This document shows, in pieces, positions 12,657 through 48,330 of a DNA stretch of 64,000 nucleotides; position 1 is the stretch's first letter; the number at the start of each line of letters is the position of its first letter. Source of the stretch: Octopus sinensis (Eukaryota); NCBI RefSeq assembly GCF_006345805.1, contig NW_021835981.1, forward strand, positions 4,739-68,738, in the 5' to 3' direction. The notes under the pieces were generated by a model. That model saw only the letters and a list, made by a program, of their open reading frames with translations. It was not told the DNA's origin and did no database searches. Made by a program: the position numbers and the translations under genes.

Positions 12657-13381
12657 TTTCTTTGAAAAATTGCATTCGGTGGGATTAGTAATATTTTTGG
12701 TAGAAATGACTGATTGTCCCTCTTAGCGTATGGCGTGTATGTAGAATGCCTCCTGGCATGTCTGTATAATGCCCTCTATATATAAATTAATATGTTCAAT
12801 GAGAAATAATTGTTTTCGAAATTTTTTCTTTATGAGGTTTTTACGCTATCGACCTGACAATTTCTTGTTAAGTTTTCCTTATTAAGTAGTTGTCCTTAAT
12901 TGCTAAATTTTATTCCGAAAAACTTTTCCTCTCCCGAAATGCAATTCGTAAAAGTTGCCATTCATCCGGATAAGTATATATAAACCCACCCATGTGCTTC
13001 GTTGATGGTGATCAGTTAGCTGATCGGCTTAAGCGAAGCAGGGTCGTTGTTTATTTATAGTATATTCAGGCCTGCTGATGATTACGTAAGTATGAAATCA
13101 CTGTGATACAGGTCTATATATTTTAAATGTCTTTCTTTGAAAAATTGCATTCGGTGGGATTAGTAATATTTTTGTTAGTAGAAATGACTGATTGTCCCTC
13201 TTAGCGTATGGCGTGGATGTAGAATGCTCCTGGCATGTATGTATAATGCCCTCTATATATAATTAATATGTTCAATGAGAAATAATTGTTTTCGAAATTT
13301 TTTCTCTTATGAGGTTTTTACGCTATCTACCTGACAATTCTTGTTAAGTTTTCCTTATTAAGTAGTTGTCCTTAATTGCTA
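12657..13381 (+). mobile_element. Non-coding ~476-bp unit in partial tandem (about 1.5 copies) carrying a hammerhead ribozyme; retrozyme or non-autonomous Penelope-like element
   Basis: 12657-12905 is repeated at 13132-13381 (offset 475-476). Flanked by (TA)n on both sides. Hammerhead at 13068-13115. Confidence 0.85.
13068..13115 (+). ncRNA. Type I hammerhead ribozyme
   Basis: AGGCCUG-CUGAUGA-U UAC GUAA GUA U-GAAA-UCAC U GUGA-UA-CAGGUCU. Stem I is 7 bp, stem II has a GNRA loop, stem III is palindromic. Predicted cleavage after A13108 (AUA). Confidence 0.88.
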
Positions 13382-14286: not shown

Positions 14287-14390
14287 AAAAATATACAACG
14301 CTTCACCAATGTGCGTGTCGTGCGTGTGCAGGTGCCATGCTAATCTCTCTATCGTTCCAATTTTAGGATATGTACTGCAGAAGGTAGTAC
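14287..14390 (-). pseudogene. U6: U6 snRNA pseudogene (full length, diverged)
   Basis: Reverse complement GTACTACCTTCTGCAGTACATATCCTAAAATTGGAACGATAGAGAGATTAGCATGGCACCTGCACACGCACGACACGCACATTGGTGAAGCGTTGTATATTTTT aligns end to end with U6. The ACAGAGA box is damaged. Confidence 0.93.
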
Positions 14391-23963: not shown

Positions 23964-24019
<56 letters not shown>

Positions 24020-24262
24020 ATATATTAATTGTTCAAAAGAAAAAAATATTTTCGAATTCTTTTTTTTATGAGGTTTTCACGCTAACTACCCGATAATTTC
24101 TTGTTAAGATCCCTTATTAAGAGGTTATCCTTAATTGTTAAACTTATTCCGAAATACTTTTTATTACCCGGCATGCAGTTCGTAAAAAGCCCGCCATTTA
24201 CCGGATATATGATTTATAAACATTCCATGTTCTTGGCCGGAGTGGGCAGTTGTCTGTTCGTC

Positions 24263-25946
24263 AGTTTGAGTTCGGTCGTGTTTTTTTACGCTCGTAGAAT
24301 TCGGTAAAAAAGATCAAAAAGAATTGTTGTTGTTGTGGAGATTTTGAACGGCGTTGAGGCGGTTTCGCGTTTCGCTGGTTCTGCGCGTTACACTTTTTCT
24401 GTTTTGGCGGCCGTTTTCGGCCCGTCAGACAGGAGGAAATGGATGACCACTCCCTAGTGGGGGAGTCGGAGGAGGAATGGATATTTGAGAGCTTGTCGGA
24501 GACATCGTACTCTGAAGACGAGCAAATCGGTGATGTAAATAATGTGGAGATAAAAAACAGGAAAACGTACGCAGGAGTTGCAAAAAAGAAGACGGCACAG
24601 GAAAAGGAAATAAACCTAGAAAAATTGCCAGGTTTCCAGAGGTATATGAGGAAGGACAGCGGCGAGGTGGAACTGGAACCACCACCAAAGAGAAAGGAAT
24701 GGTACAATAAAGGACCATTATTTACAGGGTGTCGCGAACGAAAGAAGAAAATAGAGGTTGTAAACATGGAGTGGATAGAGGAGGCCCTGAGAAGATCGGA
24801 GGAGGAAATCATTTTTCTGACTCGAGGATCGAAGTACGGTACTGTAGTGGTACATTTTAAAGTGAGACTTCAGCGAGGAGATGGCGGTGAAGGCGGTGAA
24901 GTCAGAAAAGGTACACTTTTACCTATGTATTTGAATAGAAGGATTACACGTGTGAGGTGGAGGGAGTGCCACCAAACGTTGAGGCTGAGTGGGATTGTGG
25001 CGGCTGTGATCAGCGGCACGAGGAGAAAGTGGATATTCTCCATGCCTCGGTCAAGACCGAGGGCTGGAGAGGCGTACAGTGGAGCTGAACGTGCAGGCAG
25101 AAAACGAGGTACTGGTGGACCTGGCGGAAAGTATTAAATTGGGAGACGTGATTATGAGAGAGTGTGGTGGAGGGCAGAGCTCCACGTTGTTACAAGTGTG
25201 GCCTGAGGGGCCACATAAGAGCCTTCTGCCCTCCCCCACCAAGAGAAAAGGAAATCGTTGAGGAAGCTCCAAAAGAGGAGGCCCCAAAAGAGGAAGAAAT
25301 TAAAGAGAAGCAGACGGAAAGGGAACGACAGAGGAGGAGGAGATGCAAAAAGAGTGTGAGGAGGCAGAAAGAAGAGAAAAGGAAAGAAAAGGAAAAACTG
25401 TGCGAAGCCCCAACCCACCCCAACACCACCCACAAACCTTGGAGACCCATCCTGCCCTGCAAACAGCAATCCCACCACCCCCGCCTACAAGAAAAACGAA
25501 AACGACACACAAAAGAACATACAAAGGCCCCAGTCCTACTTTTTATGTGTTGTGAGGAAGGGGGATACCGAGAACGCAAGAAGGCTTTTTGAGGACGATG
25601 TATGGCAAGAGTATGAAGACGGTACTACGCGGTGTTCGATTTGAACTTATGGGCTCTTTGATGAGCAAGTGTAATGAACTACGTATAAATTGTTTTCAGC
25701 GTATATGAAGGATGATATGATAGAGAGGTATGAAAGAGAAATGAAGGGTGAGGTAAAAGACTTGGAATTGTGATAGGAAACGGAAAGGTAAGTGATGCTG
25801 GCGGAGGGGGCCGTTAACATCGCTTTCATATTATCATTTTTTTCATTTTACCATTCATTTACTCATAATTTTAATCACATTGTTTTATATCCCCCATGTC
25901 TTGTAATGTTCCCTCTTCGTAGCCCCTAGTGGGTAATAAAGAAATA
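24263..25946 (+). mobile_element. ORF1-only (HAL1-like) L1/Tx1-type retroelement
   Basis: TSD CAGTTGTCTGTTCGTC at 24247-24262 and 25951-25966. Frameshifted gag-like ORF 24439 to ~25770 with TYAGVAKK, CYKCGLRGHIRAFC knuckle and a Glu/Lys-rich tail. AATAAA at the 3' end. No endonuclease or RT. Confidence 0.82.
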
Positions 25947-26012
25947 GGGCCAGTTGTCTGTTCGTCTTCGCTACGTAAGGTTGGTAGTTTATTTTATGAT
26001 GTGTTCAGAATC

Positions 26013-26070
26013 AGTTCTGCTGAGGATCATAAGACGTAAGTTGAATGTGAAATCACGGTGATACAGAACT
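26013..26070 (+). ncRNA. Type I hammerhead ribozyme
   Basis: AGUUCUG-CUGAGGA-U CAU aa GAC GUAA GUU ga AUG U-GAAA-UCAC G GUGA-UA-CAGAACU. Predicted cleavage after A26063. Confidence 0.88.
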
Positions 26071-26355
26071 AAATTCATTTTTTAAATGTCTTGCTTTGAA
26101 AAACTGCATTTAGGTATGATTAGTATAATTTTGGTAGTAATGACTTTGTCCCTCTTAGTGTGAGCATTTATGTGTAATAATGCCCTCTATACAATATAGA
26201 TATAATTAATTTGTTCAAAAGAAAAATTATTTTCGAATTCTTTTCTTTTATGAGGTTTTCACACGCTAACTACCCGATAATTTCTTGTTAAGATCCTTAT
26301 TAAGAGGTTATCCTTAATTGTTAAACTTATATATACATATATATATACATATATA

Positions 26356-26397
<42 letters not shown>

Positions 26398-41742: not shown

Positions 41743-42070
41743 TGAGGGATCGGAAAAACTAGAGAGAAGGGCACTCACCATATTTAGTCGCAGTTTCATG
41801 TATTATTTAAAACAGGTTGATTCGGTTCTATGCGACTTAATGTTTCGCATGCTACTGAGGGAAGCCCAACTCCTTCAGGTTTCTGCAATACCAACTGGAG
41901 TGATCCAGGAAGTCCAAGATGGCTACAGGAGGATAAGTTGCTATTGGTCAAGAAGGGTCACATGACATTATCGTGAATAATGTCAATTCGTTACGGACAC
42001 CAATTCTATCAGAAAAGGGAGTTTCTTTGACCTCATGGCTGGACAGAAACTATGGCACAAGGCGAAATGC

Positions 42071-42302
42071 CTATTTCTTTACTACCCACAAGGGGCTAAA
42101 CACAGATGGGACAAACAAGGACAGACAAACGGATTAAGTCGATTATATCGACCCCAGTGCATAACTGGTACTTAATTTATCGACGCCGAAAGGATGAAAG
42201 GCAAAGTTGACCTCGACGGAATTTGAACTCAGAACGTAACGGCAGACGAAATACGGCCACGCATTTCGCCCAGCGTGCTAACGTTTCTGCCAGCTCGCCG
42301 TC
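42071..42302 (-). mobile_element. tRNA-derived SINE with the AGCCCCTTGTGGGTAGTAAAGAAATAG tail
   Basis: Near-identical to 47938-48172 and 49059-49290. B box GAGTTCAAATTCC. Confidence 0.93.
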
Positions 42303-47379: not shown

Positions 47380-48330
47380 ATCAGCATCGAGAAGATTCTC
47401 CATTGCTTGGAATAAATTTGTACTGTCGGTATGGGTAGCTAGTGTGGCTGCATGTATATTGATGGCTATTCTGAGAGGGTTACATAAAAAGCAGCGGCCC
47501 CCAAACAGTTGCTTTAGGTACGCCATTCGATATTGATCTCCTTGAAGAGGACTACATTGGAAGCTACAGCCTTGCTTCTGTGTTTTAAGAAGTCATGTAA
47601 CTACTCAGTCAGTTTTTCCACGATGCTGAGTCTCCGTAGTTCGTCACATATTCCATGATAAGACTTATCAAAGACCTTGCAAAATCAAGATATATCTCAT
47701 CCACGATTTAACGATTCATTACTTGTTTCAACACCTAGTCATAATGCTGCAGAATCTGTCCAAGGCAGCTTCTGCCCGAGCTAAGCTATGGCTGAGTGTC
47801 AGGGAGCCAGTCATTATCTTCTAGGAACGGGATCAACTTCCTCCCCACAATTCGTACAATGACTTTATGGGGATAAAGTGAAAGGTCTATCATTTTCAGA
47901 ATCTGCTCTACTTCCTCATTTCTGGATAGGATATATACCTATTTCTTTACTACCCACAAGGGGCTAAACACAGACAGGACAAACAAGAACCGACAAACGG
48001 ATTAAGTCGATTATATCGACCCCAGTGCGTAACTGGTACTTATTTAATCGACCCCGAAAGGATGAAAGGCAAAGTCAACCTAGGCGGAATTTGAACTCAG
48101 AACGTAACGGCAGACGAAATGCGGCTACGCATTTCTCCCGGCGTGCTAACGTTTCTGCCAACTCGCCGCCTTAAGGATAGGATATGTACCATCCTTTAAC
48201 TTTCTGCGGAAGAGAATCGACGGTGGTCTTGCTGAGACCCACACCCTGCGAGATCTAAGCTGAATCAATTTTTCTCGTTTCTCTTTTCTATCGACGTGGT
48301 ATTTCATATGGTTTAACATATCTTGTGACT
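47380..48330 (-). mobile_element. Decayed CR1/L2-like LINE reverse-transcriptase fragment, interrupted by a SINE
   Basis: Reverse-complement translations PI.K.GSRADSENDRPF, KVIVRIVGRKLIPFLEDNDWLPDTQ, VDEIYLDFA..FDK. Confidence 0.75.
47938..48172 (-). mobile_element. tRNA-derived SINE with TSD
   Basis: TSD GGATAGGATAT at 47924-47934 and 48175-48185. Same family as 42071-42302. Confidence 0.93.

Follow-up and report, generated by a model that had tools for sequence, protein, structure and literature searches.

Two fixed 3′ ends, paired across inverted arms, in a hammerhead retrozyme of Octopus sinensis inserted into (TA)n

Metazoan non-LTR retrozymes are described as non-coding, AT-rich tandem units that each carry a type I hammerhead ribozyme (PMC7229834; bioRxiv 10.64898/2026.07.22.740005), and they occur as dimers to multimers for which Penelope-like elements (PLEs) have been proposed as mobilisers (PMC7229834). 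Eight of nine Xenopus dimers did not cleave (bioRxiv 10.64898/2026.07.22.740005). The PLEs themselves (Penelope/Poseidon, Neptune, Naiad; PMC8557442, PMC11167929) show 5′ truncation, partial tandems, an inverted 5′-truncated copy, a one-ended tail, a bias toward (TA)n, a type I hammerhead and two internal start sites of reverse transcription; the tail is 30–40 bp long (PMC8557442). A purified PLE protein cuts and extends both strands, prefers AT-rich DNA and initiates at two internal positions, by which the tail is defined; it has been modelled as a dimer (PMC11167929). The integration of retrozymes, and the tandem and inverted ends and one-sided tail of PLEs, are given in these papers as open questions (PMC7229834; PMC8557442; PMC11167929).

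We analysed a window of 64,000 nucleotides from Octopus sinensis (contig NW_021835981.1), together with related loci of the same genome. The interval 24026–26326, bounded on both sides by (TA)n tracts (TRF), consists of 1.3 units of a type I hammerhead retrozyme interrupted by an unrelated 1.7-kb ORF1-only LINE-like insert (Table 1). An earlier note on this DNA had left the insert, which is most of the interval, undescribed; its observations on the retrozyme itself proved largely real, with the corrections given below, and its interpretation is partly supported. Cutting out the 1.68-kb insert with a TSD of about 19 nt restores a unit of 479 nt, and the unit of the other locus is 476 nt. The two had been taken as equal at 477 bp; their lengths are similar, but length is not a fixed property of the family, as uninterrupted relatives have units of 474–480 nt, subfamily 1 arrays 475–482, subfamily 3 about 460, and two older spacings 503–506. 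That the interrupted locus is a second, diverged copy is borne out by an identity of 74.6% between the units (337 of 452 aligned columns). The profile match to its 5′ partial unit begins at 24022, model position 122, and this partial unit contains a read-through copy of the tail with the site A motif (24129–24137). In the subfamily 1 copy, the hairpin preceding site B is tandemly duplicated (12733–12772).

Table 1. Features of the two retrozyme copies in the window and of the insert in one of them.
Feature	Position	Strand	Remarks
(TA)n target tract, 5′ side	23964..24025	.	TRF
5′ partial unit	24026..24262	+	starts exactly at AT-rich site B, ends in hairpin
Upstream hairpin tip, GGGCAG uugu CUGUUC	24244..24262	+	insert's 5′ TSD copy
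Secondary insertion, non-autonomous ORF1-only LINE-like element	24263..25946	+	AATAAA end (25935-25940)
Frameshifted ORF1/gag-like frame	24439..25817	+	CCHC knuckle 25188-25229
Insert's 3′ TSD copy	25947..25966	+	one additional C
Type I hammerhead	26013..26070	+	
Hammerhead stem I	26013-26019/26064-26070	+	
Hammerhead core	26020-26026	+	
Hammerhead stem II	26027-26048	+	
Hammerhead GAAA	26049-26052	+	
Hammerhead stem III	26052-26062	+	palindromic; predicted cut after A26063
Conserved predicted domain around site B	26133..26274	+	
Pairing of site-B domain	26133-26138 and 26156-26162 with 26262-26274	+	predicted
Hairpin directly before site B	26164-26183	+	predicted
Site B	26182..26200	+	second fixed 3′ end of family; read through in copy 24026-26326
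Tail, site B to site A	26200..26326	+	about 126 nt
Site A	26312..26327	+	fixed 3′ end of copy 24026-26326
(TA)n target tract, 3′ side	26328..26394	.	TRF
Subfamily 1 copy, 1.5 units	12657..13381	+	ends at site A; hairpin 13010-13025, hammerhead 13068-13115

A type I hammerhead descriptor finds exactly two sites in the window, which are the two retrozyme copies; the Rfam scan of the window at gathering thresholds did not detect the hammerhead. The only Rfam match in the window is a U6 snRNA pseudogene-like sequence at 14287–14390 (−), with 74.2 bits. Outside the insert, the interval holds only short stop-to-stop frames, with no RT or long ORF in the unit, and the RT+GIY-YIG ORF of an autonomous PLE is absent from the unit.

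In its AT-rich, non-coding tandem units with a type I hammerhead in each, the octopus family resembles the metazoan non-LTR retrozymes, and it shares with axolotl HHR_Amex2 a U·U at the base of helix II (PMC7229834). The unit of about 480 nt is longer than the 150–450 bp of PMC7229834 and falls within the 51–972 bp of bioRxiv 10.64898/2026.07.22.740005. The fixed ends, inverted arms, (TA)n targeting and tail reported here are not among the features that the accessible text of those two papers gives for metazoan non-LTR retrozymes, and the main text of PMC7229834 does not mention octopus or cephalopods. The element does not match plant-type LTR retrozymes: the fold is type I, not type III, and what repeats at the ends is a partial tandem whose length varies, not a true LTR. 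We regard the RNA element as real and under selection, and place it in a class already known, the non-LTR retrozymes, for which the PLE link had also been proposed before.

The family is large, and its recurrence is not due to chance: the exact stem III/cleavage motif has 3565 matches in the genome, against none for the reversed control, and the tail motif 5123, against none for its control; all nine new loci read from the tail-motif matches are retrozymes. Five subfamilies are distinguished. The best genome matches of the two in the window are 95–98% identical, and both are young; three older ones were reached through the loose ends of public contigs, where an older look-alike family considered as a PLE was rejected, being these older retrozyme subfamilies. 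Arrays reach 14.4 units of 460–506 bp with consecutive ribozymes, and no unit is joined to an RT frame among the loci examined. The whole unit is covered by contigs from two runs tentatively taken to be RNA, which weakly indicates transcription of the arrays; the head-to-tail joint is also found in DNA runs, and two RNA runs with low shares (0.09 and 0.04) are given no weight.

The substitutions reported between the two window loci are in the sequence. Stem I changes from AGGCCUG/CAGGUCU to AGUUCUG/CAGAACU, which amounts to two double changes, the core changes from CUGAUGA to CUGAGGA, and stem III AUCAC-N-GUGAU and the AUA site are present at both. Across the family, all four bases occur at core position N7. 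The U·U at the base of stem II and the GUAA loop, said to be kept, hold for both window copies and not for the family as a whole, in which that position is paired in 14 of 28 haplotypes and AGAG and longer loops also occur. We assessed covariation in these 28 hand-chosen haplotypes from five subfamilies, a set in which relatedness is uncontrolled and whose extraction pattern partly builds in the invariance of the hammerhead core. The hammerhead pairs in 91.7% of 446 cells, against 24–41% in slid controls, and 10 of its 16 pairs vary on both sides. None of 500 shuffles reaches the paired fraction or the score and 11 of 500 reach the pair count; for further pair types, the corresponding measure does not exceed that of the shuffles in the same haplotypes. 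The covariation claimed for the upstream hairpin comes down to one double change. This hairpin forms the top of a long stem in the predicted fold and has a single pair that varies (U-A, G-U, A-U); in subfamily 2 the GGG form (11 units) is rarer than GAG (90) and GAA (28).

A structure that had escaped the earlier note brackets site B, with 13 predicted long-range pairs and a hairpin. In 12 sequences, 98% of its 252 cells are paired, with a double change in one pair only. Whole-unit folds have z values of −5.6 to −7.4 (40 shuffles each). These data support the view that selection acts on RNA structure, both in the hammerhead and around site B. Stem III is a palindrome with a centre of 0–2 nt; by itself it has a folding energy of 0 kcal/mol, against −9.6 to −11.9 in the duplex of two copies, and the monomer MFE structure is not the hammerhead. 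The energies of stem III suggest a ribozyme that acts as a dimer. A weak palindromic helix III, better paired between copies, is likewise known from newt satellite 2 and the axolotl dimeric hammerheads (PMC7229834); in the octopus, the palindrome is longer (10–12 nt, with the 0–2 nt centre), the host is an invertebrate and the ribozyme is a predicted one.

As had been reported, both window loci run into (TA)n 3 and about 7 nt past CCTTAATTG. This is site A, and a single fixed 3′ end does describe the two copies, but the family has a second, site B. Of 121 complete arms, 59 have their 3′ end at A and 53 have it at B, while 9 end elsewhere. Of the 111 A or B ends tested, 110 run into TA; the 112th arm, L150, was reassigned by hand to B after an alignment break and lies outside the 111. 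Distances of 105–126 nt separate the sites (about 126 in subfamily 2, about 115 in subfamily 1), B being the upstream one. Some minor 3′ ends lie still further upstream, at unit positions 344 (L168, L176) and 296–299 (L142, L151); each of them occurs twice and leads into TA. The 5′ starts vary, as claimed, and are uniform over the unit (KS p 0.75, n=57; 0.53, n=121). The arms extend up to 14 units; 71 of 121 are longer than one unit and 107 of 121 cross a ribozyme cut site. With so many arms crossing that site, and no position shunned by the 5′ starts, a linear cleaved monomer is excluded as the template. A pile-up of 5′ ends at the ribozyme cut was also considered and rejected (3 of 121 nearby, 5.3 expected).

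Most loci are head-to-head inversions, here called V. The 53 V junctions of subfamilies 1 and 2 comprise 42 that pair A with B (two of which duplicate one event), none with A+A or B+B, 6 with one other end and 5 cut by the edge of the locus (two of these being one locus). Of the six, two are interrupted by the LINE-like insert and end distally at B, two stop about 28 nt short of B, and two are rearranged. Some V loci were picked by similarity and form a biased sample; the position-ordered sample alone (31 loci) gives A+B in 19 of 23 V. A further set of 56 loci, mostly from older subfamilies, gives A+B in 24 of 26, with model position 223 counted as an older form of A, and one other end in the remaining two; an apparent A+A in this set overruns A and ends elsewhere. 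Altogether, wherever both ends lie at a main site, they are A and B (66 of 66), never A+A or B+B, whereas equal and independent use of the sites would give about half A+B. Junctions at B are also found in public contigs. With its long tail and strict pairing, this integration footprint is sharper than any description that we found, and the literature searched, which took in PMC13282606 and PMC8969392 and excluded subscription papers on PLE structure, Repbase and Dfam, contained neither a fixed A/B pairing rule nor a cephalopod retrozyme.

The 51 junctions examined were scored as 26 overlaps of 0–7 nt, 24 with filler or mismatches and 2 unscored, one of these counts being off by one; the mean overlap is 1.8 nt (26 junctions), against 0.76 in simulation. 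In 44 pairs, an arm resembles its partner more than it resembles other loci (mean rank 0.088, Wilcoxon p 7e-9), and private variants are common to both arms of an inversion. The arms of a pair therefore share a source, although gene conversion or assembly polishing could contribute to their similarity. The lengths of paired arms are uncorrelated (rho 0.20, p 0.21, n=41).

The use of two sites, one per DNA strand, points to Penelope-like machinery. We think it likely that the inverted arms end at A and B because a dimeric PLE RT/endonuclease nicks both strands and starts cDNA at A and at B of the same RNA. The case for PLE mobilisation is drawn from the footprint, not from a named partner: 5′ truncation, partial tandems and an inverted 5′ copy are all present in the family, as they are in PLE-mobilised elements, together with a one-ended tail from two internal start sites. 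The departures from PLEs are equally clear, since the retrozyme has no ORF, its tail is three times longer (105–126 nt against the 30–40 nt described), the start sites pair one of each across the strands and both arms are often multimeric (PMC8557442, PMC11167929). In vitro, the PLE protein PAc showed no strand difference in start site (PMC11167929), and strict A+B pairing is thus not predicted by that work. Target-primed insertion of variable, longer-than-unit cDNA into (TA)n, as put forward in the earlier note, stands in this form, except that there are two priming sites, one per strand, instead of one.

The pathway might run as follows. Arrays would be transcribed into RNA predicted to be highly folded, and the hammerhead, probably acting as a dimer, would give circles alongside uncleaved multimers. 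A PLE protein supplied in trans would then bind, likely at the conserved site-B domain, and two cDNAs would be extended independently through the ribozyme site, giving the variable and often more than unit-length arms seen in the genome. Joining of the cDNA ends by short homology or templated filler would yield the V shapes whose junctions are described above; alternatively, one of the cDNAs may be joined straight to the TA tract, which is the case for both window copies. A later hit at the hairpin by the ORF1-only LINE-like element, whose timing can be read at sister loci, would have completed the interrupted copy. It is tempting to go further and to picture Penelope-type integration as an asymmetric reaction in which two enzymes work on a single folded RNA that may be circular, one subunit having to start at B and the other at A, on opposite strands of the target, and both being able to roll past each other. 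In this picture the retrozyme would be a viroid-like RNA parasite with a recognition domain of its own and no homologous autonomous element, which took over PLE machinery instead of being left over from a pLTR; this extension we hold to be doubtful. The family offers thousands of natural end products that follow a simple rule, A on one strand and B on the other from the same source. It also supplies a candidate template of 480 nt and a candidate domain for recognition, and the genome that holds it has intact PLE frames, so that the proposed retrozyme–PLE link becomes directly testable.

What form the template takes bears on two alternatives. Under the same PLE mechanism, the template could be a multimer, linear and uncleaved, that is transcribed from an array in the genome; unequal exchange would have rebuilt the long arrays, and circles, should they form, would be by-products. 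This is a real possibility, if somewhat short of probable. Shared variants reappear after 8 units in L168, 4 in L169 and about 5 in L177, the last of which mixes two haplotypes, and such recurrence needs a multimer or a later block duplication. The lack of stability of stem III in the monomer and its non-hammerhead MFE structure agree with a multimer, as does the finding that ribozyme mutants left PAc insertion unaffected (PMC11167929). On the other hand, coral, mussel and axolotl retrozymes accumulate as circles (PMC7229834), and the youngest arrays are nearly invariant over 10–14 units (singleton rate 0.0002–0.0008) against median distances of 0.8–8% between loci, which is what rolling on a circle predicts. 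The two arms might instead be copied from separate RNA molecules that come from a single dominant source locus and are bound by the same protein dimer. This would account for the shared private variants without two enzymes overtaking on one strand and would fit the uncorrelated arm lengths; moreover, a same-molecule register comparison was not positive, in that only two loci were informative through shared unit-specific variants, one of them in register, and L169 lacked the expected variant. We nevertheless find two molecules rather unlikely, for many source variants coexist and this arrangement alone does not explain why A is never paired with A (66 of 66).

Two further explanations dispense with PLEs. 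LINE-like elements are abundant in the genome, and twin priming typically leaves inverted junctions that show microhomology, so that a conventional LINE might have mobilised the RNA and made the inversions in the manner of L1. However, poly(A) is absent, the two starts lie inside the unit at about 130 and 260 nt beyond the cut site, and B arms alone exceed one unit; twin priming on linear RNA would also need A arms that begin near B, which only 3 of 59 do, and we judge this origin very improbable. Hardly credible to us is a satellite or fold-back repeat at the DNA level, with ends that are recombination points in AT-rich patches and a relic ribozyme. Site B is itself TA-rich, some 5′ ends lie there and block duplications exist, but such a repeat accounts poorly for thousands of dispersed copies, for a polarity in which 3′ ends are fixed and 5′ ends random, for the strict pairing of A with B and for covariation across five subfamilies.

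The insert belongs to a family whose intact relatives encode about 463 aa, and which may be L1/Tx1-like. The intact frame has a zf-CCHC match below cut-off (E 0.06) and Atlas neighbours of zf-CCHC and ZCCHC3-like type (0.90–0.92), and protein searches returned no homologues. The hairpin tip of the retrozyme is near-identical to the 5′ end of the insert family. There are 387 exact 3′-end motifs, which are common to related families, and 35 full-length 5′ ends; of the latter, 30 junctions were read, and the retrozyme hairpin motif is present in some version at every one of them, at one as the 3′ part only. Seven of these junctions sit within hairpins of the retrozyme; the remainder are spread over a second (TA)n-ended repeat, self-tandems and other places. 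At the retrozyme loci, the two TSD copies have the variant of the retrozyme that they interrupt, and where the opposite arm spans the hairpin it is free of the insert, which indicates secondary, repeated insertions at one site. The idea that the insert is generally non-specific came from the 3′-end motif of several families and was dropped, as the full-length subfamily is site-biased. Loci of this subfamily are the window copy, L165, L173, L175, L331–L335 and L301–L330, and the self-tandems have a spacing of about 1.7 kb. Insert-related 3′ ends occur in other targets at 42070–42098 and 47938–47966 (−) of the window. The second (TA)n-ended repeat, 'target X', is non-coding and partially tandem (L192:1520-1930, L302:900-1500) and hosts the insert at a fixed site in about 15 loci, by what may be independent insertion or co-mobilisation.

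Intact RT+GIY-YIG frames of 772–781 aa are present in the genome, in three families ending at (TA)n. We searched for an autonomous partner with a GIY-YIG family search and two protein searches, covering 130 loci, which are a small part of thousands of PLE candidates and in many cases had flanks of only 1.5 kb. In these 130 GIY-YIG-selected loci, no PLE shares sequence with the retrozyme unit (best blastn E 0.007, no profile match), and no pLTR matching the unit was found. The non-autonomous PLEs of Chlamys, e.g., MRC1, offer a comparison (PMC8557442): they too form multicopy head-to-tail insertions in microsatellite targets, but they generally match an autonomous partner at the 3′ end, whereas the retrozyme has no such match, and most lack the hammerhead that the retrozyme has. 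Two of the young octopus PLE families have tails of 35–40 nt, and in PLE family A three inverted arms end at internal, non-TA positions. Young Penelope-like families (loci L091, L095, L110 and L424) have a frame of 470–480 aa upstream of the RT+GIY-YIG frame, and their elements end at (TA)n with a tail of 35–40 nt. Further hammerhead motifs of type I, unrelated and with ACUCGAGU as a palindromic stem III, lie in L098 near 6520 (+) and in L064 near 2620 (+), and probably belong to another retrozyme or PLE family.
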